Below are positions 8,452 through 62,391 of a stretch of DNA of 64,000 nt, one piece after another. A model generated the notes under the pieces. The model was not told where the DNA came from. It made no database searches and saw nothing but the letters and a program-made list of their open reading frames with translations. How positions within the stretch are numbered: the first letter of the stretch is position 1; the number at the start of each line of letters is the position of its first letter. Source of the DNA: a virus; the IMG/VR virus record IMGVR_UViG_3300008267_000780, positions 1-64,000 of that record. One strand, written 5' to 3'. Made by a program: the position numbers and the translations under genes.

Positions 8452-10959
8452 ATGTCATTCAAAGACAGTTTAAATAAACATTACGCTCACACTCAAAATT
8501 CGGTGAAAAAATACGAAGTGGGTGGTAAGGTAGTTACCAAAAAAGGGGCTACCAATGATGCGAAGAAAGGAGGTTATTTCGATGGTAGGCCGCACTCACA
8601 AGGTGGTATCAAGGCCGTGAACATCGACAATGACCAACCTATAGAAGTAGAAGGTGGCGAAGTCGTTATTACAAAACGCGCAGTAGCCGACGATACAAAA
8701 AAAGAATTCCAAGGCAAGATGATGACTAACAAGGAAATCTTGTCAAAAATAAATGAATCAGGTGGAGGGGTATCTTTTGCAAATGGAGGCGAAGTCAAAT
8801 TGGAGGAAGATGAATATTATATTTCTGATGATGATTTGAATTTTGATATTGATGAAAAGGAATTTGCAGATGTTGGAACTATTCCTGAAGATGGATTTGA
8901 TTTCACTCTTGATGAATTACAAACGAGGGTTTTAAAACTAATTGACAATGTAACTGTAAGTGATGGTATTGTTCCTTACGCAGCCTTAGAATCTGTTTTT
9001 GGCGACCAACTGAGAACGGAAAGGACTTTACAACGTTTACTTGCGGATGGTTTAATTGAAAATTATGCAGGTAGGATAGGCGAGTATGTAATTACTTCTA
9101 TGGGCAAAGATTATTTGGCTGCACAATCTACACAGACAGATTCAACCAAGGTCATTCTTCCTGAAAACCAACAGCGTATTTTAGAAATAATGATTAATGA
9201 GGGAAAGTCAGAAATTCCTTATATTCAACTTAGAGATAAGTATATACAAAAATTTCCAAAAAGCAGAGGGGGAGATGATGTTTTGGAAGCCGTGCGTGAA
9301 ATGCTCAGTTCTAATTTGATTATTGATTCTGCAAAAGGCTATACAATTGGTCCTTTAGGTTTTGATAAAATTGATGAAGTACGTCAGTCAAATCGGAATC
9401 AAAATTTGCAAACATCAAATCAAGGTAATCAGTCTCGAGAAATTGAATCAATTCGAGTTAAAATCAAAGATATTCAAGACCCGAATGGAACTAAAAACGG
9501 TATTGTAAACAAATACCGAGGCCCCTATCAGAAAATTTTTGAAAATATAGCAGTATATGAGAATTATGAAGAATATTTTCAAGATTTTGGTAAGGATACA
9601 AAGGGTAGAGATTTGAATGAATTTTATATTAAAATTATAAATCCAAAATTCAAAATTGACTCTGAGTCAGCAATTAAAGAAATAAATAGATTAAATCGAG
9701 TATCGGTTACAGAGGTGATTTACAAAAATTCACCGAGCACTGAAGGAGTTCAAGTAAATCCTTTGTTCGAAGAATTTCCATATTTTGCTCCTGACGCTGT
9801 CAAAGAGTACAATCCTCAGGTTCTTACAGTAGAACCAAGGTCTATTGAGATTGCAAGTTCAGCGGCAGGTTTAAAAAACATAATATCTGAAAAGAAAAAA
9901 ATAATAGAGATTACTTCTCAATTATTACAAGATGTACCTGTTGAAAACGTCTTGGAAAGAGTCGAAATGTCGCTCCTATTAGATGCCGAGCAACAAGAGT
10001 TGAATTTATTGGCAAATCCAAACTTAAAATATTTAAACATACTTGGTACGGGACGCGCATTTGATAAAAATACCTTGGATACACTCATAGAGAATGCTCA
10101 GATAGAACAAAATAATCTTGAAGGACGAAGAAGTATTGCGAATGAAAAAAATATCTTAGGCAAGTTTAAAAGTTTTCTTGACTACTGTGGTGTCAATAGT
10201 GATTCTTATATTGCTAATTGGTTAAGTAATTTTTTTGGTAATTGGATTTTTTATGCTGAATATTCGAATTATGATTATGCACTGTTGAGTGATATAAATA
10301 ACTTACCTGCAGCAATAAGTCGGGTAGGTAAAGTTACAGAAGTTCAAGGAAAAAGTGGTTTAGAGTATATGTATGCTCCTGAAATTGTATTTCAAGGATT
10401 GTCTAAGATTTATGATAGAGTGGGATTTGAGGTTTTCCCAATTTCGTATTACGCAGTAAACTATGATTATGCGGATTGGTTTGCAACCACGAAAGGACAA
10501 AGATTAGGTACGCAAGGGGTTATACTTCCGTGTATTTTGAATATTCGCAGGCCATTAGATTTAAGTTTTTTTGGAATCCAAAAAATAAGCCCTACAAAAT
10601 TTTTTGATGCTGTTTATCTTCAAACAGGATTGTCACCTGAGGACCTGAAGGTGAATCCTGCATTTTTATCAGACAGTACGCCTGACCTTGAGGTTTGGGT
10701 TTATATTAGAAGTAATGTTGAAATGTTAAAAATACTAAAGGAGTCAAAAATCTGTGATGGTATCCATATGTATGAAAATAATCCCGCAGTTGATGTATCC
10801 GATAAGGCTTATCAAACCGAAGTTTGGATTACTTTTTATCCTGAGCAGACCAAAGTTCTTCCGTTATATAAATTTACGGATTTTCTTCAAAACGGGAAAG
10901 AAATGGACAGAGGATGGTTTACTAAATCACAATTTTTAAAAAGTGGAGGTACAATATGA
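8452..10959 (+). CDS. polyvalent protein: 2 winged helices plus ART-PolyVal-like ADP-ribosyltransferase
   Basis: N-terminal GRPHSQGGI..EVEGGEVVI; C-terminal FFGNW...IVFQG...YYA...YADWF...ILNIRRPLDL...DGI...WITFYPEQTK. Confidence 0.7.
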   Translation: MSFKDSLNKHYAHTQNSVKKYEVGGKVVTKKGATNDAKKGGYFDGRPHSQGGIKAVNIDNDQPIEVEGGEVVITKRAVADDTKKEFQGKMMTNKEILSKINESGGGVSFANGGEVKLEEDEYYISDDDLNFDIDEKEFADVGTIPEDGFDFTLDELQTRVLKLIDNVTVSDGIVPYAALESVFGDQLRTERTLQRLLADGLIENYAGRIGEYVITSMGKDYLAAQSTQTDSTKVILPENQQRILEIMINEGKSEIPYIQLRDKYIQKFPKSRGGDDVLEAVREMLSSNLIIDSAKGYTIGPLGFDKIDEVRQSNRNQNLQTSNQGNQSREIESIRVKIKDIQDPNGTKNGIVNKYRGPYQKIFENIAVYENYEEYFQDFGKDTKGRDLNEFYIKIINPKFKIDSESAIKEINRLNRVSVTEVIYKNSPSTEGVQVNPLFEEFPYFAPDAVKEYNPQVLTVEPRSIEIASSAAGLKNIISEKKKIIEITSQLLQDVPVENVLERVEMSLLLDAEQQELNLLANPNLKYLNILGTGRAFDKNTLDTLIENAQIEQNNLEGRRSIANEKNILGKFKSFLDYCGVNSDSYIANWLSNFFGNWIFYAEYSNYDYALLSDINNLPAAISRVGKVTEVQGKSGLEYMYAPEIVFQGLSKIYDRVGFEVFPISYYAVNYDYADWFATTKGQRLGTQGVILPCILNIRRPLDLSFFGIQKISPTKFFDAVYLQTGLSPEDLKVNPAFLSDSTPDLEVWVYIRSNVEMLKILKESKICDGIHMYENNPAVDVSDKAYQTEVWITFYPEQTKVLPLYKFTDFLQNGKEMDRGWFTKSQFLKSGGTI

Positions 10960-12290
10960 ACATTGTTCAAGTAATGAAATTTGGGGGAGTTGATTTAAAA
11001 TATTATAAAAATGCGGCTGCACTTAATGGTAAAACGCTAAATAATGTTCAAATAGATGATGAGTGGGAGAATGCACAATATTATGCTTTAGAGGATTTCT
11101 ATGCACTGCCGCCCGAACAAAAAATACCAATATTGATACAAATATCAAGAGTTTCGGGCAGTAAGATGTTTTTGGTTGGATTTTTTCAACACGAATTTCT
11201 TACAGCAAAAAATTATTCGCGTGACGAAAATGTAAATTTAGAAATGATAATGAATCCTGTTGTCATTCCAAATTCGTATGGCTTTTACTACGAAGAAGAG
11301 GCGTATGATTTCTTTATGGACCTAAATGAGCGTTTTAATCAGCAGCAAACAGGCAATCCACCACCACAACCACCTGAAGAACAAAAAATTTTATTAGGCA
11401 GATTTGATATAAATTCTGATAACATATTATACGTGTTTAGTTCTTCCATACAACCCGATGCGAGCGGTAACTTTATAGGAGAATATGTCACAACTTTAAC
11501 GGATACAAATACGGCTTCGACAAGTCCAAAATCTAAAGAGATAACTACGACTATTAATGGGGAAGAATATGATTTGTTGTTATTGTTTGACCAAGATTTT
11601 TCTGATAAAACATCTTTGCCAATTCCTTCTACCTTTCCACAAGGAGGTGGTGGTCCGAAATCGCAAACTTGGTTTATTATTCCACTGAAAAACGATGGTA
11701 CGGGTCACGGTACCCCACCACCACAAATGCCTTCACAGGGCTCTCAAGGGTCACAGGGCTCTCAAGGGTCACAGGGCTCTCAAGGGTCACAGGGCTCTCA
11801 AGGTTCGGGTGGTTCAGGTGGTTCGGGTGGTTCAGGTGGCTCAGGCGGTTCAGGTGGCTCAGGTGGGTCAGGTGGTTCAGGCGGTTCAGGTGGCTCAGGC
11901 GGCTCAGGCGGCTCAGGCGGCTCAGGCGGCTCAGGCGGCTCAGGTGGCTCAGGTGGCTCAGGTGGCTCAAGTGGCTCAAGTGGTTCGCGAGGTGCAAGTA
12001 CAGCGGGTTCAGCAGGACGTGCAGGAACCTTAAATGGTGGTGGTGATGGTGGTGCTGTTTATGGTAGTACACAAACTTCAGACATACCTCTAATAGAAAT
12101 GATTGCGGACAATCTGAATAAAACGACAAACCAAGTACGTGGTCAATTAAGAACTGCGGGCTCTGCGATGATGTTCCTTGCATCAAATCCACAATCGGTT
12201 GAACCCATTAAACAAAATTTAGGTTTATCGAATTCAAATATCTCGATGAATGAATTGGCAAAAAAAATAATTGAAAAAATAAGAGAATAA
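10956..12290 (+). CDS. hypothetical protein with SQG/SGG low-complexity linker
   Basis: 444-aa ORF translationally coupled to the upstream gene. Confidence 0.75.
   Translation: MNIVQVMKFGGVDLKYYKNAAALNGKTLNNVQIDDEWENAQYYALEDFYALPPEQKIPILIQISRVSGSKMFLVGFFQHEFLTAKNYSRDENVNLEMIMNPVVIPNSYGFYYEEEAYDFFMDLNERFNQQQTGNPPPQPPEEQKILLGRFDINSDNILYVFSSSIQPDASGNFIGEYVTTLTDTNTASTSPKSKEITTTINGEEYDLLLLFDQDFSDKTSLPIPSTFPQGGGGPKSQTWFIIPLKNDGTGHGTPPPQMPSQGSQGSQGSQGSQGSQGSQGSQGSGGSGGSGGSGGSGGSGGSGGSGGSGGSGGSGGSGGSGGSGGSGGSGGSGGSGGSSGSSGSRGASTAGSAGRAGTLNGGGDGGAVYGSTQTSDIPLIEMIADNLNKTTNQVRGQLRTAGSAMMFLASNPQSVEPIKQNLGLSNSNISMNELAKKIIEKIRE
11733..11985 (+). repeat. coding tandem repeat (18-bp SQGSQG units, then 9-bp SGG units)
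   Basis: tcacagggctctcaaggg about 4 times, then tcaggYggY repeats. Confidence 0.9.
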
Positions 12291-12295: not shown

Positions 12296-13699
12296 ATGGC
12301 ACAAAGAGGCACATTAGAATATTATCAGGACATTGTAAATGATACAACCAATCCTGAGTTAGTTAGAAATCAGGCACAAAAGCAAATTGACCGTTTGGCT
12401 TCAATTGGCTCTGCACAGGTTCAAACTGCGGCAACTACGGGCAATTTAGACCCTCAAATTCAAGCGGTCCTTAATGCGATGCAAGCGGCAGTAAATGCTT
12501 ATGGGGGTAAATCAGCAAATCCACAGCAAATCAAACAAATTGTAGATGACGAAATTGCTAAAGCAAAAATCGATTTTTCTCAATTAAGCGATGGATTAAA
12601 GGCGATGCTTCAGTCTCAGACGAAAGTCGAATTGACTTTGCGTCAGATGGCTGCTGTGTCTACAAAAGTTGTAAGCAATGCCTTTATTAAGCGTCCACTT
12701 GTTCAAGATTTGTTATCCGACGTACAAGCGCGAAATAACGCTTATTTGTATGGAGGTGCGGGAACAGGAAAAACATATACTGCGGGTGAAATAGCAGATT
12801 TGTTGGATTGGGAATTAATTACTTTGAACTGTAACCAATTTACTTCTCCGATTGATATTATAGGAGGTCAAACCATCGATGGATATCAAGAAGGTAAAGT
12901 CTCTATGGCTTGGGCAAATGAAATCATTTCTCCTAATGGTGATAAAAGAAAAGTTTCAGGAGTTGTCTTATTGTTGGATGAGTTACCTAAACTTGACCCA
13001 AACACTGCAGGTTTGTTAAACGAAGCCTTGGCAAAAGTCAAAGATTTCAAATTTGATAAGGTTACAGGAGCAACAAAGCCACCAACAATTCTAAATGGTA
13101 GAAATGAAAAATTGGTTTTGGGTAACTTAATGGTTATTGCAACGGGTAACGTACCCTTGAATACTGTTGACCCTGATTACGAAGCGAACTTTAAACAGGA
13201 TTTGTCTTTGCAAGACCGTTTTGTGGGAAGCACTTACAAAATTTTCGTGGATTATGAATACGAATTCAATTCTATTATGGAAGGATTTGCATTCATTTGG
13301 ATTTACGGTACCAAATTACGTGAAAAAATTATTTCACTGAATGCTACAGGGCAAGCGTTTGTTTCCATTCGTCTTATGATGAACCTGAAAGAAACTTACA
13401 AGGTTTATAGAGAGGTAGTCGATAAGAATAAGCAAAATGTTGGAAACCAAGCCTTTGATTTAATTACAGACCCTAAAACAGTCGTAGAGTCACTTGTTAC
13501 TTTTTTGGATTTGTTCAAACCTGCAATCAAACAGGCAATTCAAGACGACCCAAATACCAATCTTGACAACTTCAAAATGGTCTTGGACGCAAAAAATAAA
13601 ATGCCATATAATGCTAAAGCACCTGATTTTAACACTCAAGATGAAATTAACGAGGCAAATCGTATGATTACTGCATACGAGGCAAGCAAAAATTCATAA
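12296..13699 (+). CDS. MoxR/CbbQ-like AAA+ ATPase
   Basis: Walker A GGAGTGKT, Walker B LLLDE, sensor IATGN, DLSLQDRF Arg finger. Confidence 0.85.
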   Translation: MAQRGTLEYYQDIVNDTTNPELVRNQAQKQIDRLASIGSAQVQTAATTGNLDPQIQAVLNAMQAAVNAYGGKSANPQQIKQIVDDEIAKAKIDFSQLSDGLKAMLQSQTKVELTLRQMAAVSTKVVSNAFIKRPLVQDLLSDVQARNNAYLYGGAGTGKTYTAGEIADLLDWELITLNCNQFTSPIDIIGGQTIDGYQEGKVSMAWANEIISPNGDKRKVSGVVLLLDELPKLDPNTAGLLNEALAKVKDFKFDKVTGATKPPTILNGRNEKLVLGNLMVIATGNVPLNTVDPDYEANFKQDLSLQDRFVGSTYKIFVDYEYEFNSIMEGFAFIWIYGTKLREKIISLNATGQAFVSIRLMMNLKETYKVYREVVDKNKQNVGNQAFDLITDPKTVVESLVTFLDLFKPAIKQAIQDDPNTNLDNFKMVLDAKNKMPYNAKAPDFNTQDEINEANRMITAYEASKNS

Positions 13700-13704
13700 T
13701 CTCT

Positions 13705-15375
13705 ATGGCTTTATTTGGTAATTGGTCGGGATATCCTATTGTTGGTTGGTCATTTGATGACCAAGAGAAGTTAATTGAAGCCATTAAAAAATTTAAGGAT
13801 GATGGTCGTAGCACACCGACGGCTGCGGACTACGGTCAAAAAGAATATGATGAAGAAATTAGACGTTATAAACGGTTTTTTTATGATACAACCTTCAAAA
13901 AAGTTCTTTTTGATTTTGGTTTAAAATTCCAATTGGGAGGTTCAAAAGATAAATCGCGTATTATAACCACCGATAAACCTCAGGGTATTTTTGATTTTTC
14001 TTTGGCCTCAAAAGGCTTGTATAGGGTACCTGAATATTACTCAGAAAAGTTAGCAAAAGAAAAACCAAATAGGTTTGCTGAGTATGGTACACTCAGTGGT
14101 GTTGTGCCACCAAATTTTGTTCAACAAAGAAGCATTCTTGGTATTCGTCAATTTTACTTTATTGACGAAGACAAAATTGAGTACGTTTGTCAACAATATC
14201 AAAAAGGCACTGTTGCAATTAAGGACAATGTAAAAGGCGCAAAATTGCAATTTGCAACCACTACAAAAAAAGTTTATTTGAAGTTTAAAAGGGTAGGTGG
14301 TAAAGTCAATTATGTTGAAATTTATTCTTTATTTTATTATACAAGTGTTTATGGAGCAGAGGGTTATGCGTTGAGACATTTACCTGCTATTATGGTTTGT
14401 CAATATTTTGAGAGTCTTGGAATTAAGTGTCGTTTTTATCCGACACGATTTGTTGTTTTTAGTTCAGACCATACCATAAGGGAAAAAGATTTGCTGACTG
14501 ATGCAACTTTGCCTATGTATAATATTCGAAATTTTCTGACCGAGCCATATGATTATTTAACGGTACAACCATTTTTGGCAAAAGAATACGGTGAGGAGTT
14601 TGACCCCGCAATTGCTTTAGCAATTTCACAGGAAAGTTCAGGCACAATTTACACCAATGTTATTCAAGAAGCGCAAAAACAAGATTTGGTAGCCGATAAC
14701 TATCCAACAGGAGGTAATCCTGATTGGCAAGAAATTGATTACAGGGTTGGATTTGAGCGTTATAAAAATAAATATCAAGAATATGTCAAGGCAGGTATTT
14801 TTAAGGGTAAGGAAGTGAGACCCGAGGCACAAATACTGTTTCACTCAATGTCAATCAAATATTATCAGGATGTAATTCGTGATACAGCGCGAGATATTTG
14901 GGGGTCGCTTCAAATAGATGAAATTATTACCCTTTCTCCATATTACGGTAAATTTATTGAATGGTGGATGAATTTTTGTGCAATGAAATTGCGGGATTAT
15001 GTTCTATTGTTGAATACAAAAGAACCACGAAAAGAAATGGAATATATTGCAAAAGAAATGAAAAACTTTTTGAGTGAATATGTTTATTATGTAAATAATA
15101 AAAATGTCACTTTTGGGGATACAGAATTTCGTGATAGGGTAATTTTTCGGTATATGGGGTCTATTTGCAATCAAGAATATTTAACATTAAACGATAATGT
15201 AAATAATGGTATTTTGGAAATTAATCCTGATATAAAAGGATATATAAGTAATTTAATAAACGACGTTGCTATTTATGCTGAAAATGAACCATTTCCTACG
15301 CCTGCAGAACAGATTGAAAAAATGGATTTATTAGCAGAAAATTTATATAATGAATTGGAAAGGGTAAACATATGA
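13705..15375 (+). CDS. probable degenerate VWA-like partner of the AAA+ ATPase
   Basis: position after a MoxR-like gene; beta-alpha segment VEIYSLFYYTS...PAIMVCQYFESLGIKCRFY; no clear DxSxS MIDAS. Confidence 0.45.
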   Translation: MALFGNWSGYPIVGWSFDDQEKLIEAIKKFKDDGRSTPTAADYGQKEYDEEIRRYKRFFYDTTFKKVLFDFGLKFQLGGSKDKSRIITTDKPQGIFDFSLASKGLYRVPEYYSEKLAKEKPNRFAEYGTLSGVVPPNFVQQRSILGIRQFYFIDEDKIEYVCQQYQKGTVAIKDNVKGAKLQFATTTKKVYLKFKRVGGKVNYVEIYSLFYYTSVYGAEGYALRHLPAIMVCQYFESLGIKCRFYPTRFVVFSSDHTIREKDLLTDATLPMYNIRNFLTEPYDYLTVQPFLAKEYGEEFDPAIALAISQESSGTIYTNVIQEAQKQDLVADNYPTGGNPDWQEIDYRVGFERYKNKYQEYVKAGIFKGKEVRPEAQILFHSMSIKYYQDVIRDTARDIWGSLQIDEIITLSPYYGKFIEWWMNFCAMKLRDYVLLLNTKEPRKEMEYIAKEMKNFLSEYVYYVNNKNVTFGDTEFRDRVIFRYMGSICNQEYLTLNDNVNNGILEINPDIKGYISNLINDVAIYAENEPFPTPAEQIEKMDLLAENLYNELERVNI

Positions 15376-18155: not shown

Positions 18156-21100
18156 ATGAATAATCAAGCAAAAATTAAACTTGAGAAAATAAAGAAACTG
18201 AAACTCCCTGAAAAAGTTAGGGCTACAGCGGACAAAATCGAACAAGGTTTGTCAAGTGCAGACGCGGCTACTCAAAAGAAGGCTGAAGATGCATTGAATA
18301 AACTTTATACGCAAATTAAAGCAGTCGCGGCCAAACAGCGTGAAGAAAAAACGGAAAAAGAAGTCAATGAAAAGACGATTGTTCCGCAGAATTCAGACAT
18401 CGCGGCTCCTGAAGCCAAAAAAGAGTTGACAAAAAAAACGACTGTTGCAGATGACGTAATAGACAAGGCATTAAAAAACGACCCTGAACTTGCGGGATTT
18501 GGACGCTCTGATAAGCGTAGAGACGCAGGTAGAAAGGCTCTTCCCGCAGGAAGGCGTGTTGCACGAAAAGGATGGTCCAATCAGTTTGGTAAGTCGGACG
18601 GTGGTCGCGTTTATTATGAAAACCGTGAAAATCGTAAAGACCGTAAAAGCCCTTCATACAAGTCAGGATACCCATACTTGGCAAAAGGGGGTAAAATTCA
18701 CCCTATGGATGACGAAGACGGAACTTTTTATGTAAACCTTTACAAAACCAAAGGAGACCAAATGATGTCAGTTGATGAGCGCGAATACAGTTCTAAAGCA
18801 TCCGCTATGACCTACGCGATGATGAAGCGCGACTTTATGAAAGAGGGTGAAAGCATATTCGTGATGAATGATGACGGTGATGTGTTATACACATCTATAG
18901 GCACAAAAAAGATGGCTATGGGTGGTAAATTCCCTTATCAAAACGCTCAAGTTGGTGACAGTGCTCGAGTTATTCTTGACAACAAAATGGGAACCATTAT
19001 GGTCACATATGGTCGTCGTTTCCATTTAAAGTTTCCTGATGGTACGGAAAAGACTTATTCGGCTGAAGAATTGGAATTTTATCCTGATGATAATGTGATG
19101 GCCAAAGGTGGTGAATTGAAAAAAGGCGATAAAATTGTCGTGCTTGGTACGGAATTTGAATTTGTACGATATGAAATGGATTCAAGCCAAGGATATGACG
19201 AAGAACGTGTAATATTGAAAAATGAAAATGGTATTCGCTCTTATCCTAAAGATATGGTCGAAGCATATTCCCAATACGAAATGGCCAAAGGCGGCTATAT
19301 GGCGAAAGGTGGTTCCGTATTAAAACCAATAAAAATTTTAATAAAAAACCTTGACGGCAAAATTGTGTATACAACTACAAGTAGTAACAAAGCCGCAGAT
19401 TACTTAGTCCTTCACGATAGAGATAATTTGACTGTAGAAACTGAAGATGGCGAAGTAATATTCGCAAATGGTCAATATATGGCCGATGGTGGATATATTC
19501 CGTATGATGGGGCAATGAATTCGTTTAGAGATTTTCAAGTTTATGTAAAACAACGAATTTCAGAATATCCTGAATTGAAGGAAGAAATTTTGGAGTTTTA
19601 TTATCTTGCACAAAGTGAAATTGAAGAAGGGGGCTCTACGTATAGTGAAATAAGTAGAGGTTTTGAGGATATTGAAGACATAATTCGAGAACAAAAAATG
19701 GCCAAAGGTGGCTATATGGCTGAGGGAGAAAACTATGAGTATGTAAATACGTTCAAGCGTTTTGATAGCAATGTGCCCGTTCCTGATGAGGATTTTAAAA
19801 AATTGGTGGATGCTTATCACAAACAACTTTCGGGTGATAAACTTGCCGTTTCCAAGTATAAGGTTTTGAAACTTCAAATGGGCAACTATTTGGGTCATAA
19901 AACAGTTGAAGAAATGGAAGCGTACATTGAAAAAACCCACAATGCTCACAAAATGGCCAAAGGTGGCTATGTTGATATCGAAGCAAAATTAATCAAAGAA
20001 TTGCAAAAATTACAACGCGATTTAAATAGCAACAGATTAAATACCTATAGAGAAGGAGATAATTCTGATGCCGAAAAGGCTCGACAGAGAGAGCGCGAAT
20101 CTAAACTTGTTAGGTTCAATGAAATTTTAGAATTGCTTCGTGAAAACGACGCGAAGAAAATGGCCAAAGGTGGTACAATTAACAAACTCAAAGCCGATTC
20201 ATACGCTTACGGTTTTATGGAAGATTTTGATAAAACGAGAAGGATTGTCAAGATGAATTTTGGGGATGATACAAGAAAAGAATTTGAAAAAATAGTAAAG
20301 TCTAAGTTCTCTAAACACAAAGTATTTGAAGATGGTGGCTATATGGCTGATGGTGGGGCAATCAAGGGGTCAAATCCATCAACGGGTGAAAAATTTGGGG
20401 TGGTAATAGGCTCATTAAAAAAAGAAGATGGACTTACAACTTTGACAATTCGGAGTAGTTATTCAGCAAGAATCAAATCGTATGAATTAACTTTTGATGA
20501 AAAAGGATTTTTAAGGTCGATTGGGGATTTTGGTCATACTATTGATGGAACTTACCCTGATATGAAGGGTGGTCATTTAAGTGTAAAAAATGTCGATGCT
20601 GACAACAAAAAAGAAAGTATAGACGCACTTGCCAAAATAACAAGCCCATCTTTTGCCAAAAAAGTTTATGATTATGTACAAGAAGAAAAAATGGCAAAAG
20701 GTGGACCAACGGGCGATTACACCAATAGAAGGGACTTGAAATTAATCGTTATTAAAAACCCCAATAAGAGCGGGTCAAAGGATTATTTAACAATTGATAA
20801 AAAGGATTTCCTTGACGGGTTGCACAAATTTGAAGGTGGTGGTAGTTTGTCGAAAGGCTACACCTACATCAAAAGAGCCGATGTTAATCAAGTTGCCTAT
20901 TACGATAAGAATGGCAAGACACAAATTGAGTTCAAACCTAAGAATGGATTTTGGGTGAGCAAAAAAGCACTTGTGGATGCGGGGATGAACGAAAGTAAAG
21001 CCGAACCTAAAAAGACAAGTTTAAATTTTGGCACTACATCAATGCGTAAAACATCAAGTGGTTGGATTGCCAAAAACAAGGTTTCTAATTATAAGGGTTA

Positions 21101-21923
21101 CGATTGGGAAATCACTACGATGAAGAGTATGCGTGGCGATTTGGTTAGTACCGCAGTCGGTGGGAAAAATGAAAAAAGTGGTAGTGGGTACACGATGTTT
21201 ACCTATGTTATGTACCAAGACCCGAATGTTCGTTTGATAACATCAAAGCCATCAAGAATTACCGAAAAGGTTACTTTGGAACAACAAGAGAAAGCATTAA
21301 AAGAGTTTGAAACCAAGGTTACGGATAAATGGTATGCCGATGGTGGTAAAATTGGCTTTGAAGCCCTTTCCAAAAAAGTAGCGTCGCGATACGCAGGTAA
21401 AAAAGTTCAGCCCAAATATCAAGGCGAATATGGAAAGACTTACGATAAGGCTGAAGCAAAGGAAGTTGGCGACAAAGTAGCGGCAAAAGTTTATCGTATG
21501 CAGCAAGGTAAAATGGCTATGGGTGGTAAAATTGAACTTCCTTACGAATTAGACAAATATTTTACCAAGCCTGCAGGGACAATTGAAGTGGAAATGAGTA
21601 AGTTAATTCCTATTCGTGCACGAAAGGAAGGTATTGAAAATGCAGAAGTGTATATGAAGAAGGCTTACGATGGTAAAATGTCCAAGCGTAAACCTATTGA
21701 AATTTACAAAACGCGCAATAAAAAATATCGCGTGAACGATGGTAACAGTACCTATGCTGTGGCTAAAAAGAATGGTTGGGAAACTATTTATGCAACTGTA
21801 GTTTCCAATCCTAATGTCTCAAAACGTGCCGAAAAAAGTACATTTGCAATAGCAAAAGAAATCAGAAAAGAAGGCGAAAAATGGAGTGATGCTGTAAAAA
21901 GAGTAAAGGAAAACAGAAAATGA
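18156..21923 (+). CDS. MAxGG-punctuated polyprotein with C-terminal ParB/Srx-like domain
   Basis: 15 copies of [MFYL]-[AE]-x-G-G; KPIEIY...YRVNDGNSTYAVAKKNGWETIYATV. Confidence 0.75.
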   Translation: MNNQAKIKLEKIKKLKLPEKVRATADKIEQGLSSADAATQKKAEDALNKLYTQIKAVAAKQREEKTEKEVNEKTIVPQNSDIAAPEAKKELTKKTTVADDVIDKALKNDPELAGFGRSDKRRDAGRKALPAGRRVARKGWSNQFGKSDGGRVYYENRENRKDRKSPSYKSGYPYLAKGGKIHPMDDEDGTFYVNLYKTKGDQMMSVDEREYSSKASAMTYAMMKRDFMKEGESIFVMNDDGDVLYTSIGTKKMAMGGKFPYQNAQVGDSARVILDNKMGTIMVTYGRRFHLKFPDGTEKTYSAEELEFYPDDNVMAKGGELKKGDKIVVLGTEFEFVRYEMDSSQGYDEERVILKNENGIRSYPKDMVEAYSQYEMAKGGYMAKGGSVLKPIKILIKNLDGKIVYTTTSSNKAADYLVLHDRDNLTVETEDGEVIFANGQYMADGGYIPYDGAMNSFRDFQVYVKQRISEYPELKEEILEFYYLAQSEIEEGGSTYSEISRGFEDIEDIIREQKMAKGGYMAEGENYEYVNTFKRFDSNVPVPDEDFKKLVDAYHKQLSGDKLAVSKYKVLKLQMGNYLGHKTVEEMEAYIEKTHNAHKMAKGGYVDIEAKLIKELQKLQRDLNSNRLNTYREGDNSDAEKARQRERESKLVRFNEILELLRENDAKKMAKGGTINKLKADSYAYGFMEDFDKTRRIVKMNFGDDTRKEFEKIVKSKFSKHKVFEDGGYMADGGAIKGSNPSTGEKFGVVIGSLKKEDGLTTLTIRSSYSARIKSYELTFDEKGFLRSIGDFGHTIDGTYPDMKGGHLSVKNVDADNKKESIDALAKITSPSFAKKVYDYVQEEKMAKGGPTGDYTNRRDLKLIVIKNPNKSGSKDYLTIDKKDFLDGLHKFEGGGSLSKGYTYIKRADVNQVAYYDKNGKTQIEFKPKNGFWVSKKALVDAGMNESKAEPKKTSLNFGTTSMRKTSSGWIAKNKVSNYKGYDWEITTMKSMRGDLVSTAVGGKNEKSGSGYTMFTYVMYQDPNVRLITSKPSRITEKVTLEQQEKALKEFETKVTDKWYADGGKIGFEALSKKVASRYAGKKVQPKYQGEYGKTYDKAEAKEVGDKVAAKVYRMQQGKMAMGGKIELPYELDKYFTKPAGTIEVEMSKLIPIRARKEGIENAEVYMKKAYDGKMSKRKPIEIYKTRNKKYRVNDGNSTYAVAKKNGWETIYATVVSNPNVSKRAEKSTFAIAKEIRKEGEKWSDAVKRVKENRK

Positions 21924-23035
21924 AACTATTAAAATTAACCAAACAGGAAGTTGCAAAACTTCAAAAGCAATACAAATTTGGGTCTGATTTATCCAAGCAA
22001 GACGTAGTAGTCAAAATATTTAACCCTTATGGTAGGGGAAGATGGTATTTGGTAAATCAAGACCCTAAGGACCCTGATTACATTTGGGCGATTGTAGATT
22101 TAGGGATGGGACCTGAAGTTGGCTCAGTGAGTTTGAGCGAACTGCAGAACCTGCGAATGCCTGTATATGGGTATAAATTCCCGTTGGAAAAAGACAGATT
22201 TACACAACGAAATGCTGTCGAAGTTTTTGAAGGATTGCAGCGCGGCAATTATTTTGCAGATGGTGGAGAAATCAAAGTAGAAGTTGCTCAAAAAGACATT
22301 TACAACAAAAATCATTACAAAGGTATATTCCAAGATTCCGACAAAGACGGTGTTCCTGACATTGATGATGCACAACCGAAAAATCCAAAATTACAGGGAG
22401 AGGTTGAAGAGTTGAAGTTCTCTCAAGTGTTTGATAGGCTAATAAAAACGAAAAGGTCTTTGGACAAAATTATGAGGGCGGCTATCTCAAAACTCAAGGT
22501 GATTTCCCCTGTAGGAAGTACGATTTATGCTCGAACCAAAACGCCTTATTCCATAATCAACAAATTGATTAATAAAAAGTCTACGAGCCTTGAAAGAAGC
22601 AAATTGGGTGATGTTGAAGGTTTGACGGATTTAATTGGAACCACAGTAGTTGTCAAAAATTTGAGTGGTATCGAACAGGTATCAAAAGAATTAGACAAAG
22701 GCGCATTGGGTGAAATATTGGAAAAAAAAGATTATTACGAAAACCCAAAAGCGGGTTATCGTGCAATTCACTACATCACCATTTTTGAGGGTGTTGCTAT
22801 TGAAGTGCAATTGAAAACTTATCGTCAAAAAGAAATCAATGAGGCCTCTCACCAAGCGTACAAATACGAAAATCTTGAAGCGGACCGTTTGTTGTATTTG
22901 ACCAATTTGGCGAATGAGGCTGATATGGGAGACCGAAAAGCCCAAATAGAAATTGACAAAATTTTCCTCGATAAAAAAGCCTTAAAGGAATCTTTGTACA
23001 AAGACAAAGTCAGAGGAAATAAATTACCTTCGTAA
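21920..23035 (+). CDS. DUF2958-like domain plus RelA/SpoT small alarmone synthetase
   Basis: KIFNPYGRGRWY...PEVGSVSLSEL; ARTKTPYSIINK, DLIG, DYYENPKAGYRAIH, EVQLKT. Confidence 0.85.
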   Translation: MKLLKLTKQEVAKLQKQYKFGSDLSKQDVVVKIFNPYGRGRWYLVNQDPKDPDYIWAIVDLGMGPEVGSVSLSELQNLRMPVYGYKFPLEKDRFTQRNAVEVFEGLQRGNYFADGGEIKVEVAQKDIYNKNHYKGIFQDSDKDGVPDIDDAQPKNPKLQGEVEELKFSQVFDRLIKTKRSLDKIMRAAISKLKVISPVGSTIYARTKTPYSIINKLINKKSTSLERSKLGDVEGLTDLIGTTVVVKNLSGIEQVSKELDKGALGEILEKKDYYENPKAGYRAIHYITIFEGVAIEVQLKTYRQKEINEASHQAYKYENLEADRLLYLTNLANEADMGDRKAQIEIDKIFLDKKALKESLYKDKVRGNKLPS

Positions 23036-25052: not shown

Positions 25053-25547
25053 GTGAAAGGAATTTTCAAAGAAATATTGGATGCGACCCAAGGTCCGCAC
25101 GCAAATGGAGTTCTCTACGCAGGGGCTGTAGGACTTTTATTGTCCAATATTATTCCAACCCCCGCAGATGCTTTATATTTCCATCGTGAGAAAAAACTCA
25201 AGGAGAAATGGGACAATAAAGAAATCACACCCGAAAAATATTGGCAAAAAACTGCAACCGCCTATTACGTGTATAAACCCGTATGGTGGGGACTTGTAAT
25301 TAGTGCAATGTATTTTACCAAAGGCGATGTCAAGGACAAAGCGAAGATAGGTTTGATGATTGTAGGAGCAGGAGCCGTAGTAGGGATAGTTTACAGAAAT
25401 TACACAAAAGACATTCAAGATGTTCGTCGAGAAGTTTTGACTTCTATGGAGCCAAAGAAAAACATTACAGGTCCAAATAAGCCTGTGAAAGTTGGTCAAT
25501 ACAGGTCAGTTCTTCGAAAAGGAAACGTCTTAAAGTTTGTCGCTTAA
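25053..25547 (+). CDS. multi-pass membrane protein
   Basis: three hydrophobic segments; GTG start. Confidence 0.7.
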   Translation: MKGIFKEILDATQGPHANGVLYAGAVGLLLSNIIPTPADALYFHREKKLKEKWDNKEITPEKYWQKTATAYYVYKPVWWGLVISAMYFTKGDVKDKAKIGLMIVGAGAVVGIVYRNYTKDIQDVRREVLTSMEPKKNITGPNKPVKVGQYRSVLRKGNVLKFVA

Positions 25548-25557
25548 TAAAAAAGAA

Positions 25558-25911
25558 ATGGAAAATTTAACAGGAGCACCCGCAGCAGCCGCAGCACCCG
25601 CTGCCCCCGCAGCCCCCGCTGCACCCGCAGCACCTGCAGCACCCGTAATGGCGCAAGGTGGTAGTGTAGCAGATGCCGCACCGAAAATGGTAGAGGGTGG
25701 CGACGTTTCATCAATAGAAACCAATTGGGGAACTTGGATTGCAATTGGCTTGGTGTCACTTACGCTTGTTTCATTGATTTTACAGATTGCTGTACATCGC
25801 AAAAATTTAAAGAAAGTCGATGCAGACGATGAAGCATTGCAAAAAGATGTCAGGGAACTGAAAATGAATGTGAAAAAACAAATGGGCGAAAAGTATGAAA
25901 CCTTGGCTTGA
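25558..25911 (+). CDS. membrane protein with PAA repeat and MAQGG/MVEGG motifs
   Basis: MENLTG-(PAA)n-VMAQGG...KMVEGG, TM WIAIGLVSLTLVSLILQIAV. Confidence 0.7.
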   Translation: MENLTGAPAAAAAPAAPAAPAAPAAPAAPVMAQGGSVADAAPKMVEGGDVSSIETNWGTWIAIGLVSLTLVSLILQIAVHRKNLKKVDADDEALQKDVRELKMNVKKQMGEKYETLA

Positions 25912-27344: not shown

Positions 27345-28319
27345 ATGGAAAATACAGAAAATGTGAATTCAGAAATCATTGATGATTTCTCCCCGCTTAC
27401 TCAGGACAATGTAATCCAACGTGATTATACAAAACCAAATGTTGACTTCTCTCAAGTCAATGCAACCCCTATTGAAGAACCTGTATTCGTAGCCCCCTCT
27501 TTTGAGGATATGGATGCTAATTGGAATTCCAAAAATGTCGAAGAAGCACAAATTGTAGATGAAAAAGCAAGTGCTAATCCATATACAGAAAATCTTGACA
27601 AGAAAGACCAAAGAAAAGCATCAGCCGCATTGGTTGAAGCCCTTTTGGATGGATACACTCAATTGAACAAATTTGGGAATAAACTCGTTCAATTCAATCC
27701 TGAAAAAATACAGGGAATGATGCGCTCAGGGGAAATAGACCCTGATTTGACCATTCCAATTAACGGTAGAAATATCGGAGTTCTTGATTATGTGAATGCA
27801 TACAATGAAGAAACTTCCTCAGTTATTTCCGTTGATGATGACTTCAAAGACAAGGTACGTCCATTGTTAATTGAAGAGTTTATGGAGCGCAACATCGGGA
27901 TGACCCGATTGCAATTGATTGGATATTATTTTGGAACTGATTTATTGACTAAGGGAACCTTGGTTTATTCATTGAGGAAACAGAATCAAGCAGTATTGGA
28001 TTCTTTGGTGGAAATTAGTCAAAATAACCGTCCCGCTCCAACACCTCAGGCAAGTCGTGTGCAACAGTCAGAACCAATTAGAGAAGAGGAACCTGTGAGA
28101 AAATCACAACGTGAATTCGTAGAGCCTGAAGAGGAATACGCAGTTGTCGAAGAGTTTGAACCCGTGACGGTAGTAAAAACTGCCAATGACGATGTTAGTC
28201 GCTCAAGAAGACCACAGGCAGGACCTAAGTTTGGTGACTCTGCAATTTTGGAGCAAATGGAACAAATCGCAAATGGTGAGCCTTCAGGTAAGCGTAGAGG
28301 TAGACCAAGGAAAAAATAA
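27345..28319 (+). CDS. acidic protein with C-terminal AT-hook, possible packaging accessory
   Basis: ends KRRGRPRKK; immediately upstream of the packaging ATPase. Confidence 0.55.
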   Translation: MENTENVNSEIIDDFSPLTQDNVIQRDYTKPNVDFSQVNATPIEEPVFVAPSFEDMDANWNSKNVEEAQIVDEKASANPYTENLDKKDQRKASAALVEALLDGYTQLNKFGNKLVQFNPEKIQGMMRSGEIDPDLTIPINGRNIGVLDYVNAYNEETSSVISVDDDFKDKVRPLLIEEFMERNIGMTRLQLIGYYFGTDLLTKGTLVYSLRKQNQAVLDSLVEISQNNRPAPTPQASRVQQSEPIREEEPVRKSQREFVEPEEEYAVVEEFEPVTVVKTANDDVSRSRRPQAGPKFGDSAILEQMEQIANGEPSGKRRGRPRKK

Positions 28320-28327
28320 TATCAAAT

Positions 28328-29149
28328 ATGAGAGAACCATTATTGGGCGTAGCCGTCGGAAAGAAAGGTGTAGGTAAAACCTTTACGACCAATAGGGTCA
28401 TAAAACAATATGTGATGGGTAATCCCGCTTCGGGAATTATGCCAAGAAAAGTTTTGATTTTAGATGCAAACGATGAATATACTGAGTACAAAGCGATTGC
28501 ATTAAAAGATTTGATGTTGTTTAGTGTGCACCCTATGGTAGAAGCAAGAAGAATTAGGCCAATTCACGCGGATGGTAAAAAAATGACCTTGGACGATTTG
28601 GCAACCACTTTGAATTACATTTTGGAAGTTTTTTCGGGTGGACTTTTATTGATTGAGGATATTAATCGTTTCACTTCTGATTTTATGCCTCAAGATTTGA
28701 TGGGAGCAATTGCAACAAATCGACATCGTGATTTGGATATCATTTTGCACTATCAAGGAATAGGTCGTATTGGAACAAAAGTGTGGCAAAACATAAATTG
28801 GCTCAGGATGCATAAAATTACTGAGTCAGCGATGCGACACGCGAAGAAGTTTGAAGACAAATATGAAATAATCCGCATATGCGAATTAATGGTCAATACA
28901 CAATTCTTTGCAGGTAACGAAAGGTACTATCAATATATTGATTGTGAGAATATGTGCTTTCAAGGTAAGGTAGATGAAAAGTTGTTTGCAGAAGCCTGTA
29001 AATTGTTTATTGAAGAGAATTATCGTAGAATTATTTCGCCTCTTTTACAAATTCGTGGAGTGGGTGACAAAAAGAAATTCACGGCTGATACTGCAATGAA
29101 GTCAGAAATGGAAAGATTAAGGAAAATGTACTTGAAAAAACAATTGTAA
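28328..29149 (+). CDS. genome packaging ATPase, A32/P9-like (FtsK-HerA superfamily)
   Basis: Walker A GKKGVGKT near the N-terminus, Walker B LLLIED, NRH...IILHYQ Arg-finger/Gln motif; 273 aa, no nuclease domain. Confidence 0.8.
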   Translation: MREPLLGVAVGKKGVGKTFTTNRVIKQYVMGNPASGIMPRKVLILDANDEYTEYKAIALKDLMLFSVHPMVEARRIRPIHADGKKMTLDDLATTLNYILEVFSGGLLLIEDINRFTSDFMPQDLMGAIATNRHRDLDIILHYQGIGRIGTKVWQNINWLRMHKITESAMRHAKKFEDKYEIIRICELMVNTQFFAGNERYYQYIDCENMCFQGKVDEKLFAEACKLFIEENYRRIISPLLQIRGVGDKKKFTADTAMKSEMERLRKMYLKKQL

Positions 29150-29182
29150 GTTACTTTAAGTCTACTATGTAATCAATAAGCG

Positions 29183-29209
29183 AACCCCCTTTAAAACAGG
29201 GGGTTTTTT
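29183..29209 (+). terminator. intrinsic terminator after the ATPase
   Basis: AACCCCCT-TTAAAAC-AGGGGGTT-TTTT. Confidence 0.8.
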
Positions 29210-29287
29210 ATTTTAAATACTTGTAAATTACTATGCAAAATATATTTTAGGGAATACTTAATAGTTAATAGTCCATTTTATCCAAGG

Positions 29288-29295
29288 TATTTTTG
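29288..29295 (+). promoter_or_regulatory. Bacteroidota -7 element upstream of the capsid unit
   Basis: TATTTTTG 40 nt before ATG 29336; no clear -33 element. Confidence 0.45.
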
Positions 29296-29335
29296 AAACT
29301 GTAAGCAGTCTGAACGGCTTATCAAACAAAAACTT

Positions 29336-29449
29336 ATGAACGTAGAATCTTTAAAAAAAATCGGAGGACAAGTCCTTTTAATTGTAGTCGGTGTATTAAT
29401 TGCTAATGAAGTTCAAAAGCAAATTGACAAACGACGCGCAGCAATGTAA
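29336..29449 (+). CDS. 37-aa membrane peptide co-transcribed with the MCP (not in ORF track)
   Basis: MNVESLKKIGGQVLLIVVGVLIANEVQKQIDKRRAAM. Confidence 0.7.
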   Translation: MNVESLKKIGGQVLLIVVGVLIANEVQKQIDKRRAAM

Positions 29450-30188: not shown

Positions 30189-30210
30189 TCCCTCTTTTGC
30201 GATTGAATAG

Positions 30211-33210: not shown

Positions 33211-33421
33211 CACTCAAATAAAGCGCATACTGATTGCAGGGGGATTTTTCTTCCTGCTTTTGCGTTTTCGGGGATATTTAAATCCCGCGAAAGAAACTTT
33301 GTCTGCTAAAGACGAATCTTTATCAGCGAGTGGTACGAAAACCGTTATTGATAGGGCGATTGACAAAATTAGAAGTGGCGGGGTAAAAGTTGCAAGCACT
33401 CCATCTGAAATAACAAACTGA
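33197..33421 (+). CDS. membrane protein (N-terminal TM)
   Basis: GTG start assumed; ILIAGGFFFLLL. Confidence 0.55.
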   Translation: MKLNNTQIKRILIAGGFFFLLLRFRGYLNPAKETLSAKDESLSASGTKTVIDRAIDKIRSGGVKVASTPSEITN

Positions 33422-34203
33422 TGAAAGAAGAAAGAATTGCTACCAAATATGCTCCCGTTACGCTTTGTGTGGTTTTGAAAACAGAGTTCCCTACCAAACT
33501 CAATTTGGTAGTGTTCGATGCAAAAAACCCCAAAAGGAAATTCACTGAGCGTTACAAAACTGTTACAGGCGAAGAAACCCTGTATGTTCGAATGCCGTTG
33601 TCTCCTGATAACGCTGTCGTTCAAGTTTTTTCGCACGGTGGAATTGCAAAAAAGAATGACCCAAACTTCAGTATTGTAAGGGTTTACAAAAAAGGTTTGG
33701 AGCGTCGGTTTGATTTGAATGATATTGGGAATCCCCAAATACGCTCATTCGTCAAATTCGCGCAGAAATTTTGTTTTAATGTGAGTGAGTTGGAGCCCGA
33801 AGAAACTTATCGAAGTGATGACGGTGAATACTTTATTCAGTTGAAGCAACAGATAAAAGATGCAAACGGAAAAGTGTTGGGTACGCCCGCACGTATTGGC
33901 CGTAGAACAGGTGTTATTCAAGTGAGTAAAACCCAATTTGAGGCCTTTACAATTCCTATGCGTATGGCAATTTTGCTACACGAATTTTCCCATTTTTACT
34001 TGAATGAAAAAATGGATGATGAAATGGAGGCAGACTTAAATGGATTGTTGATTTACCTTGGTCTTGGATATCCAAGAATTGAGGCTTATCAAGCGTTCCT
34101 CGAAACATTCAAAAATGCACCAAGCAATTTGAATAAGAAACGCTACGATATGATTAATAACTTCATCAACAATTTTGAGAAAATGGACATTGTAATAAAA
34201 TAA
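33421..34203 (+). CDS. zincin metalloprotease, candidate maturation protease
   Basis: ILLHEFSH (HExxH) plus EMEAD third-ligand motif. Confidence 0.8.
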   Translation: MKEERIATKYAPVTLCVVLKTEFPTKLNLVVFDAKNPKRKFTERYKTVTGEETLYVRMPLSPDNAVVQVFSHGGIAKKNDPNFSIVRVYKKGLERRFDLNDIGNPQIRSFVKFAQKFCFNVSELEPEETYRSDDGEYFIQLKQQIKDANGKVLGTPARIGRRTGVIQVSKTQFEAFTIPMRMAILLHEFSHFYLNEKMDDEMEADLNGLLIYLGLGYPRIEAYQAFLETFKNAPSNLNKKRYDMINNFINNFEKMDIVIK

Positions 34204-61605: not shown

Positions 61606-62391
61606 TCAATCATCTGTATAAGCAAGTTTTGCATAAAGGCCCTTTTTTGTGGGCTTTTTGTCGTTTATAATGATGACTCTTTCTTCATCATCAAGGGTCA
61701 AAACTGCACCTCCTTCAACTTGGTCGTCAAAACTTAAAGCCCTTGAACCCAAGGAGTCTTTTGGCAGTAGTTTAGACAACTGTTTCAACACGATTTTCTT
61801 TAGCATCCAAAATTGACTGTCTTTTGCGTCATTGAAATACAGTTCGTTTCTATTTTGAAGATTCTCCACAATCGTTTCCAATTCTTTCTTAGACATCACC
61901 TTGAAGACCTTTTCTTCATCGCGCGTTTTGACCATCGCGTAAATGTGAGTTAAAGAAATCGATGTTCTCAAATCGTCTTTGGGTTTGTGACGTAGAATTG
62001 GGTCAAGTCCAAGTTCATAATCGAAGTCATCCGCCTCGTGCACAGACTCACACCAAATTGATTTTACGCCATTATTTCGCATCAAGAGTGTGATTACACC
62101 TTTGTAGCCTAAAATAGGCTTAATTTGGCCCTTGTAGGGCAAAAAGAAAAACTCTCCGACTGATGGATTGGGGCTCAAACCCAATTCTGCACAATGAATG
62201 ATTGCCGCAAACAGGTTGCGAGGATTTTTTTGGAATGCAAACAGCATTTCTTCATTTCTCCTGACTTCAGTTAAAACAACTTGTTTGAACTGAGCGGGCG
62301 ATATGGAATGATTTTTCAACAAATCGACCAATACCTTTTGTTCAAAAGTGTCGAGTTGAATACTAAATTTTGTTAAAAGGGCGTTATCCAT
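61606..62391 (-). CDS. recT: RecT-family ssDNA annealing protein
   Basis: CAELGLSPNP..GEFFFLPY, ILGYKG, MLKKIVLKQLSKLLP. Confidence 0.9.
   Translation of the reverse strand: MDNALLTKFSIQLDTFEQKVLVDLLKNHSISPAQFKQVVLTEVRRNEEMLFAFQKNPRNLFAAIIHCAELGLSPNPSVGEFFFLPYKGQIKPILGYKGVITLLMRNNGVKSIWCESVHEADDFDYELGLDPILRHKPKDDLRTSISLTHIYAMVKTRDEEKVFKVMSKKELETIVENLQNRNELYFNDAKDSQFWMLKKIVLKQLSKLLPKDSLGSRALSFDDQVEGGAVLTLDDEERVIIINDKKPTKKGLYAKLAYTDD

Follow-up and report, generated by a model that had tools for sequence, protein, structure and literature searches.

The window analysed here is the first 64 kb (64,000 nucleotides) of a 74.7-kb IMG/VR virus record, IMGVR_UViG_3300008267_000780, which is 89% complete according to CheckV. 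At positions 18156 to 21923 lies the gene of a modular protein, P0001, punctuated by fifteen copies of a short motif ending in Gly-Gly, here called the seam. Homologues of P0001 number 460 at E<=1e-3 in a collection of 5.8 billion proteins and are all metagenomic or viral; the module and motif statistics below rest on 120 listed of these 460. The homologues were cut after each motif and the pieces were clustered. The parts of the gene are as follows, with cluster numbers referring to these module clusters:

18156..21923, plus strand: P0001 gene, modular polyvalent-type protein, one open frame of 1255 residues
18156..19112, plus strand: residues 1-319, constant N-terminal modules (clusters 0, 1, 4), in 61-108 of the 120 homologues with their order kept
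18678..18692, plus strand: seam 1, LAKGG, residue 175; in model segment 99-129, predicted local distance difference test (pLDDT) <50
18912..18926, plus strand: seam 2, MAMGG, residue 253
19098..19112, plus strand: seam 3, MAKGG, residue 315; a co-occurring variant contig departs from 19087
19113..20705, plus strand: residues 320-850, variable middle with nine small cassettes and two 6-residue tandem seams
19281..19313, plus strand: seams 4 and 5, tandem MAKGG-Y-MAKGG, residues 376 and 382
19479..19493, plus strand: seam 6, MADGG, residue 442
19698..19712, plus strand: seam 7, MAKGG, residue 515; site of whole-module insertions in 95-96% identical relatives
19953..19967, plus strand: seam 8, MAKGG, residue 600
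20160..20174, plus strand: seam 9, MAKGG, residue 669
20325..20357, plus strand: seams 10 and 11, tandem FEDGG-Y-MADGG, residues 724 and 730; variant contigs join another upstream module
20691..20705, plus strand: seam 12, MAKGG, residue 846
20706..21920, plus strand: residues 851-1255, constant C-terminal modules (clusters 6, 2, 3, 0), in 47-108 of the 120 homologues with their order kept
20829..20843, plus strand: seam 13, FEGGG, residue 892
21333..21347, plus strand: seam 14, YADGG, residue 1060
21513..21527, plus strand: seam 15, MAMGG, residue 1120; variant contigs carry a different module from 21531
21570..21818, plus strand: residues 1139-1221, ParB-N/sulfiredoxin-fold domain in the last module, from structure comparison

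The initial annotation of this DNA had listed fifteen such motifs, and all of them are present exactly as given there. In 20,000 shuffles of the protein, the pattern [MFYL][AE]xGG occurred 0.25 times on average and four times at most, compared with 15 times in P0001 itself. The protein is Lys-rich, with 8.4% Gly, and contains 20 GG dipeptides versus 8.9 predicted by its composition. An extra match, IEEGG at residue 489, was rejected as a junction; it sits within a confidently folded helical domain. Among the homologues the motif occurs about once per 100 residues, most commonly as MAKGG, MADGG, YAKGG and FAKGG. A logo of 354 dereplicated junctions with unrelated flanks reads [M 52%, Y 20%, F 18%, L 8%]-A-[K 44%, D 28%]-G-G-x-[I/V/M/L/T]. 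The second position after Gly-Gly carries 1.8 bits, though the search pattern left that position unconstrained. About a quarter of the junctions are tandem with a period of six, and both copies share the hydrophobic residue.

The pieces between the motifs had been described as unrelated modules of roughly 50-170 residues. This agrees with what we found in P0001, namely modules of 26-179 residues that fall into different similarity clusters (15 module clusters). Neither Pfam nor PHROGs, LPD families included, gave a significant family match for P0001. By structure comparison, the last module contains a ParB-N/sulfiredoxin (Srx)-fold domain with a pLDDT of ~90 and a Foldseek probability of 1.0 to Noc, ParB, KorB and Srx. 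With VIA-align, residues 1139-1221 match 5x0b with Z 9.3 (root-mean-square deviation, rmsd, 2.4; 79 aligned), Noc 7ol9 with Z 8.2 and ParB 7bnk with Z 7.9. Residues 320-375 form a small beta barrel with a weak Tudor/CarD-like match (Z about 6), and the remaining P0001 modules had no reliable structural match. A basic stretch around residues 120-170 is strongly conserved, with near-invariant columns in two alignments, A1 and A2; the end of A1, in which a fragment meets full-length mosaics, is misaligned, and A1 was excluded from folding. Modules of the families Zeta_toxin/AAA_33, DUF2958, DUF5661, RadC and RelA_SpoT are carried by homologues of P0001.

Residues 56-1255 were folded with AlphaFold from an 80-sequence alignment. 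The model has a mean pLDDT of 63.9, as expected for beads on a string, and contains at least 12 separately folded segments. All 15 motifs lie in segments with pLDDT<50 between confidently folded elements, which none of 100,000 random placements achieved. The initial annotation had proposed to compare domain boundaries with motif positions; the comparison places every motif in a low-confidence linker and none inside a folded domain. Its picture of a chain of small independent modules with the motif at their borders is therefore sustained, both by these linkers and by the motif-bounded gain and loss of whole modules described below. Its two proposed roles for the motif, release of the modules at Gly-Gly and capsid loading, stand on weaker ground and are weighed below.

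Such a model may also be explained by a passive linker, that is, a hinge allowing the modules to fold independently and to unfold one by one through a narrow ejection channel, conserved by descent and recognised by no partner. Gly-Gly is flexible and the model does show beads on a string. Moreover, the cargo of crAss001 was proposed to unfold partially during extrusion, and no cleavage was reported (Bayfield et al. 2023, PMC10172136). However, a hinge calls for neither an Ala nor a conserved pair of hydrophobic positions, and it would not stay so uniform over 354 otherwise unrelated junctions. Nor would free-standing proteins retain it at their N-terminus, or unrelated small membrane proteins carry it at all. 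We consider this explanation unlikely. The seam is real and apparently an undescribed junction code; no description of it was found in the literature on phage double-glycine polyproteins or polyvalent-protein linkers.

Cassette exchange at the seam

The 120 homologues yielded 197 module clusters. Their ends are constant, opening with clusters 0-1-4 and closing with 6-2-3-0, and two alternative last modules are found, of 131 or 178 residues. In contrast, the middle modules differ in content and order: their clusters are found in just 2-48 of the 120 homologues, and cluster 4 lies early in some proteins and late in others. Homologues with 95-98% identity over their aligned columns are set apart by single insertions, 86-191 residues long, and most of these start and stop within the motif. 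For example, P0005 differs from P0004 by an insertion of this kind (...REQKM/AKGG...EFY/AKGGYMAEGE, with slashes at its ends), and P0006 and P0007 carry other inserts at the same seam, three in all.

Comparable joints are present in natural populations. Contigs from four lake or freshwater runs were compared with the P0001 gene, and at least the departure points given in this section were found. In two studies, co-occurring variant contigs depart at 20334, where an alternative upstream module ends with ...YYAK and is followed by the GG of the window. In two studies, contigs depart at 21530, directly after MAMGGK, and have a different last module. Other departures are at 19087 and 20319. We count these breakpoints as supporting evidence for exchange at the seam, not as a statistic. 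One further joint, from 20356 to 21507 (skipping 1150), was treated as a repeat artefact of the seam DNA and not as a real deletion, because it has 23 letters on one side and its length is not a multiple of three. The P0001 gene is nearly complete in runs from at least 10 freshwater or lake studies. RNA runs contained only 5-11% of the sampled words, and we make no claim on expression.

In relatives, the modular gene is sometimes split in two or fused to a DUF2958-RelA/SpoT gene. The downstream halves of split genes open with a short leader and the motif, as in M-R-K-L-S-K-S-YAKGG... and M-N-K-K-Y-N-F-YAEGG.... Among shorter homologues on long contigs, some open reading frames (ORFs) begin exactly at the motif Met (MAKGGK... 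in P0157 and P0209), and others stop 5-20 residues past a motif. These starts raise the possibility of internal translation initiation, with the seam Met as initiator and the modules also made separately. Met is indeed the commonest first residue (52%), and some free-standing ORFs start exactly at MAKGG. However, Tyr, Phe or Leu occupies the same position in 46% of junctions. These residues cannot initiate. The first seam position behaves as a hydrophobic residue rather than as a start codon, and internal initiation appears very improbable.

The DNA of the seam is also unusually uniform, and its synonymous positions vary less than conservation of the amino acids would demand. At these positions the seven MAKGG sites in the P0001 gene resemble each other beyond the level set by codon usage, with a mean pairwise identity of 0.898 versus 0.829 expected (p about 0.0015). 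Codons were compared across the lineage in 33 motif-rich ORFs. The motif Ala is encoded by GCT in 80% of sites versus 40% elsewhere, and by GCT or GCC in ~90% versus ~50%; the motif Lys is encoded by AAA in 98% versus 84%. The preferred Ala codon depends on the genome, being GCC in the window phage, L016 and L091 and GCT in most others. This looks like within-genome homogenisation and not like a universal translational preference. The first seam Gly is encoded by GGT or GGC in 93% of sites, and by GGA in 4% versus 34% elsewhere in the lineage. GGA at this position would create GGAGG, and its scarcity may come from the avoidance of a sequence resembling a Shine-Dalgarno site, and not from a role in recombination. 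The hydrophobic seam positions use varied codons (ATG, TAY, TTY; ATH, GTN, CTN). They are conserved as amino acids and lie outside the near-identical DNA core, therefore the peptide itself must matter.

A candidate agent of recombination is encoded near the other end of the window:

61606..62391, minus strand: RecT-like single-strand annealing protein (phrog_148, E 5e-45)

In-frame cassette exchange is the best-supported role of the seam in the P0001 gene, and it was absent from the initial annotation. In polyvalent proteins, which are encoded by phages and conjugative elements, a single large chain unites many different domains, from 2 to 15 or more (Iyer, Burroughs, Anand, de Souza, Aravind 2017, PMC5512222). 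The seam is probably an exposed cassette-exchange junction with a peptide-level function, located in a polyvalent (multi-effector) protein of this kind. P0001 would then be a polyvalent-type multi-effector whose constant ends enclose a fast-changing cassette middle, encoded by an uncultured freshwater phage. We infer that in-frame recombination uses the seam DNA (roughly ATG-GCY-AAA-GGY-GG) as a short stretch of homology. The RecT-like protein of the phage is a possible agent, and any seam-flanked cassette could then be spliced in frame. The seam peptide, in turn, would be recognised by something, and the likeliest candidates are a processing protease or a loading or ejection partner.

Several observations weigh against this interpretation. 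First, about half of the listed variant-contig departures lie off the seams (18756, 19791, 19823, 20487, 21037, 21633 and 21689), and a recurrent 86-residue insertion or deletion has a seam at its right end only. Second, the recombination mechanism is deduced from its outcomes, and a core of 14-15 nt is short for RecT-type annealing. Third, constraints on translation or on the mRNA, such as the avoidance of GGAGG at the first Gly, could account for the codon uniformity instead. Finally, alignments of mosaic proteins break at the junctions, and confidence there can drop for that reason alone; the low junction pLDDT in this mosaic family may be partly due to such breakpoints.

Candidate proteases and possible cleavage at Gly-Gly

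If the seam peptide is recognised by a protease, one gene of the window is a candidate:

33421..34203, plus strand: candidate protease with an N-terminal beta sandwich (residues 1-95) and an M48/minigluzincin-like domain, from alignment A3 and fold

The initial annotation had called this protein a zincin, and its M48-like metallopeptidase fold with an invariant HExxH motif was confirmed. In alignment A3 (17 sequences), H187-E188-x-x-H191 (HEFxH) and three acidic residues, E201, E203 and D205, are invariant, the acidic residues being ligand candidates. The AlphaFold model has a pLDDT of 89.5, and its beta sandwich is CBM/GOLD-like. The best structural matches are BepA 6sar (Z 8.8; 119 aligned, rmsd 4.2), 3c37 (Z 6.8), Ste24 (Z 6.4) and proabylysin (Z 6.0). 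At the sequence level no Pfam, PHROG or PDB match was found, so the M48 assignment is a fold-level resemblance only. The zincin is present in 20 of 20 related records with 45-95% identity, whereas no other peptidase-like gene is conserved throughout the lineage.

Other proteases were sought by family. The lack of a Ulp1-like protease, noted before for the window, extends to the whole genome: Pfam models PF02902 (C48) and PF00770 (C5) had no match at E<=1 in this genome (G000) and four complete relatives, a result that a very divergent protease could escape. PF03412 (C39) had no match in these five records and matched 7 of 14 control genomes. PF18818 (MPTase-PolyVal) was likewise unmatched in the genome and the four complete relatives, and no module of the P0001 family has a conserved HExxH. 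An M23 peptidase is present in one relative only, and no prohead protease family was identified in the window phage. Finally, tblastn against cultured phages matched neither P0001 nor the zincin, and a cultured relative with virion proteomics was not found.

The distribution of the zincin does not connect it to the seam in particular. A scan of IMG/VR for the DNA pattern of the tandem seam gave 34 stretches, several of which are chance hits lacking a motif-rich ORF. The zincin is present in 10 of 20 tandem-seam records, and the ten lacking it are mostly short fragments. Six of these ten, both complete genomes included, show no motif-rich ORF in the fetched stretch. Two of them, G022 and G034, clearly bear the motif; they are incomplete records in which the lineage ATPase is also missing. 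Given the chance hits, the co-occurrence of zincin and seam is not separable from shared ancestry, and since the zincin and the seam proteins both belong to the core of the lineage, their co-occurrence cannot tie one to the other. A complex prediction of the zincin with zinc and a 40-residue tandem-seam segment scored 0.01; controls were not run, and the score speaks neither for nor against binding.

A second motif, [FY]x[NSG]A[DNTS]G, is found around the zincin gene, with 7 copies versus 0.10 expected in the ORFs of the 23-38 kb region. Its copies are 19-78 residues from the N-terminus of a candidate capsid protein and of several small proteins flanking the zincin; in membrane proteins, too, it lies close to the N-terminus. 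One N-terminal leader with this motif belongs to the product of 29490-30188. Sites of this motif in 29490-37171 and 58474-59061 read FLNADG, FMSANG, FFGADG, YGNADG, FVNADG, YSNATG, YFNASG and YGNASG. The second motif is at least as plausible a substrate of the zincin as the seam is, and it may be a propeptide site for this enzyme.

One possible reading of these data is that the zincin or a host protease cuts the chain at every Gly-Gly or beside it, and that the modules are released as separate small effectors before packaging or after entry. In the structural model, the seams appear exposed and flexible, as cleavage sites must be, and the conservation of the peptide reaches positions beyond the DNA-identical core. 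The short N-terminal leader and motif retained by free-standing proteins resemble a removable propeptide, and an M48-like zincin with an invariant HExxH accompanies the seam proteins in 20 of 20 relatives. There is also a precedent: processing by peptidases was proposed as the usual route by which polyvalent proteins are separated, and DdrB of phage P1 is processed before packaging (PMC5512222). On the other hand, the C48, C5, C39 and MPTase-PolyVal families were not found in the genome or the four complete relatives, no module inside the P0001 family has an HExxH, and the motif-bearing G022 and G034, though both fragments, lack the zincin. The neighbours of the zincin carry the second motif, which would be a more natural substrate. 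Finally, ORFs that begin exactly with MAKGG would release a mere pentapeptide. We consider cleavage at Gly-Gly possible but less likely than not.

A stronger version of this idea combines cleavage with the exchange of cassettes. The seam would be a dedicated processing signal, cut at every [M/Y/F]-A-x-G-G-x-[I/V/M/L], and the same 15-nt element would serve both as cleavage code and as recombination site for payload swapping. We regard this dual role as rather doubtful. If true, the chain would deliver a dozen rapidly exchanged counter-defence or host-takeover modules, and it would be cut either while the virion matures or once it has entered the cell. A virus of bacteria would then have its own version of the polyprotein processing of eukaryotic viruses, with cassette shuffling built in.

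Other seam-bearing genes and their surroundings

The seam is not restricted to P0001. The following genes of the window carry it as well, and the motifs that had been pointed out in all four are present:

8452..10959, plus strand: seam-bearing gene, 835 residues, with YEVGG, FANGG and LKSGG (LKSGG 2 residues before the stop)
10956..12290, plus strand: seam-bearing gene, 444 residues, with MKFGG at residue 7
21920..23035, plus strand: overlapping downstream gene, DUF2958 and RelA/SpoT nucleotidyltransferase (Pfam)
25537..25911, plus strand: small membrane protein, Pro/Ala-rich leader followed by MAQGG and MVEGG

In the gene at 21920, FADGG (residues 112-116; 22253-22267) lies between Pfam DUF2958 (6-93) and RelA_SpoT (205-317), so that, as had been proposed, the motif separates the DUF2958-like and SAS parts. 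This type of gene is fused to the modular protein in L018, L025, L028 and L041. The family of the 8452 gene bears the motif in relatives too. Homologues of the 25537 protein keep the leader and one seam despite divergent surroundings. For such N-terminal copies we rely on individual examples, because with a mixed set of ORFs an enrichment of the motif among the first 30 residues is not meaningful.

Two of these proteins have other unusual sequences. The N-terminus of the 8452 protein (8452-8800) contains YEVGG, KKGG, SQGG, VEGG, SGGG and FANGG within ~115 residues, and its homologue in L005 opens with a similar run of short GG units. The gene at 10956-12290 opens 4 bases ahead of the point where the seam-bearing gene before it stops, and it encodes a tract of ~110 residues, (GSQ)n and then (GSG)n. 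Next to these genes, a MoxR-type AAA+ ATPase (AAA_5) and a 556-residue partner with no family match are encoded at 12296-15375; the pair lies upstream of the modular gene, in the same order, in all relatives examined.

The order of genes is conserved in the lineage. It starts with the first seam-bearing protein, followed by the MoxR-type AAA+ ATPase and its partner, a variable gene and the modular protein, which stands with or without the DUF2958-RelA/SpoT part. Then come an SLT transglycosylase, many small membrane proteins with a PAP2 phosphatase, a P-loop ATPase and a 232-residue candidate capsid gene. P0001 may be packaged into virions, as judged only from two points: its gene keeps a constant place upstream of the block that encodes the transglycosylase, the membrane proteins and the ATPase, and polyvalent proteins with a ParB domain offer a precedent.

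In this context the seam could be a tag for capsid loading or for docking to a partner. A component of the virion, or the MoxR-type ATPase pair encoded upstream, would bind it, and the seam-bearing proteins would thereby be loaded together. Consistent with such a tag, one phage carries the motif on a number of proteins that otherwise have nothing in common (8452, 10956, 21920, 25537), and the MoxR AAA+ gene and its partner are syntenic with the modular gene in the whole lineage. However, fifteen copies per chain are far beyond what a tag needs, and we consider a dedicated tag improbable. An exchange junction with a peptide-level function, our preferred interpretation, leaves room for a partner of some kind.

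In searches bearing on the class of the virus, Terminase_6N and DNA_pol_B_2 had no match, nor did crAss_CARG1, whose model matched no control genome either, and no protein-primed polymerase family was detected. Its structural genes match no known family, and no terminase, portal or known capsid family was found. The P-loop ATPase (273 residues, in the 27345-30188 region) has weak HerA/DUF87 and terminase-profile hits, and PDB chains match it at the Walker A region only. The candidate capsid protein gave no informative hit in the ESM Atlas. Three complete relatives (G002, G010 and G027) have inverted terminal repeats.

The right-hand part of the window encodes a protein of 4183 residues (45923-58474) that consists nearly entirely of Gly-Ser-Ser and Gly-Thr-Ser triplets (collagen-like, with no Pro). 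Its N-terminus is globular and its C-terminal end resembles the intramolecular chaperone domains of tail fibres. The triplet repeats keep several other reading frames open. Directly upstream are glycosyltransferase/FkbM methyltransferase fusion genes (40034-45930).

Known systems

The Gly-Gly motif recalls the maturation proteases of some eukaryotic viruses. Adenovirus adenain and pS273R of African swine fever virus (ASFV) are Gly-Gly-specific, with the consensus (M/L/I)-X-G-G↓X or (M/L/I)-X-G-X↓G. Inverted terminal repeats are also found in adenoviruses and PRD1-like phages. As in the substrates of adenain and pS273R, a short hydrophobic-then-Gly-Gly motif recurs in several proteins of the window phage, and three of its relatives have inverted terminal repeats, as adenoviruses do. 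However, the hydrophobic residue of the seam would be at P5 and not at P4 as in the adenain and ASFV consensus, and no clan-CE protease was detected in the window phage. In bacteriophages, head proteins are processed at short consensus sites by T4 gp21 (L/I-x-E) and in phiKZ-like phages (S/A/G-x-E). Internal or injected head proteins of these phages have short repeated recognition sites, and their N-terminal targeting peptides are removable. The seam differs from both consensus sites, and the candidate protease of the window phage is of another class.

Polyvalent proteins are thought to let phages and plasmids deliver many host-directed activities at once. Like them, P0001 is a very large mobile-element protein that strings together unrelated small domains and is mosaic between relatives. 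In phage members, ParB-type domains were singled out next to virion genes, and RelA/SpoT was considered a phage-type module (PMC5512222). P0001 has a ParB-type domain, and RelA/SpoT, RadC, Zeta-toxin-type and DUF2958 domains occur in P0001, its neighbour or relatives. An embedded zincin-like MPTase for self-processing is frequent, although not universal, in polyvalent proteins (PMC5512222). P0001 differs in having no embedded MPTase peptidase and in that most of its modules have no Pfam match, LPD included. The words "linker" and "glycine" are absent from the full text of PMC5512222, therefore a conserved junction peptide is not described there.

A second parallel is provided by crAss001, whose cargo proteins C1 and C2 (gp45 and gp46) are large, virion-borne and thought to be ejected ahead of the DNA (PMC10172136). 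Two seam-like matches are present in gp45, FAEGG at 260 and FAYGG at 559, and none in gp46. Each of the two lies just after a segment resolved by cryo-EM (214-245 and 425-552). In gp45 (L104, 11988-14516), segment 214-245 is a tail-bound helix and 425-552 a portal-bound domain. One may speculate that gp45, if cut at both motifs, could leave separate chains on either side of the portal. Homology between P0001 and the crAss001 cargo was not detected; crAss_CARG1 (PF25725) had no match in 10 records, and its model matched no control genome either.

The seam may be of practical use in several ways. As a single peptide it gives a simple rule by which the modules of thousands of phage proteins that lack annotation could be delimited. 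It also suggests how payloads might be exchanged in frame, and it is a defined peptide whose cleavage or binding can be assayed. New anti-defence proteins may well be sought among the small cassettes, which are 26-170 residues long and comprise about 200 types in 120 proteins. Since lakes commonly contain the phage (at least 10 freshwater studies), material for proteomics is likely obtainable even without a cultured host.

An analogy for the exchange itself comes from polymorphic toxins. According to Zhang et al. (2012, PMC3482391), recombination exchanges their variable domains for those of free-standing cassettes with the same conserved junction. Polymorphic toxins swap a single C-terminal toxin tip, whereas P0001 has a dozen exchangeable internal positions, all with the same 7-residue seam.

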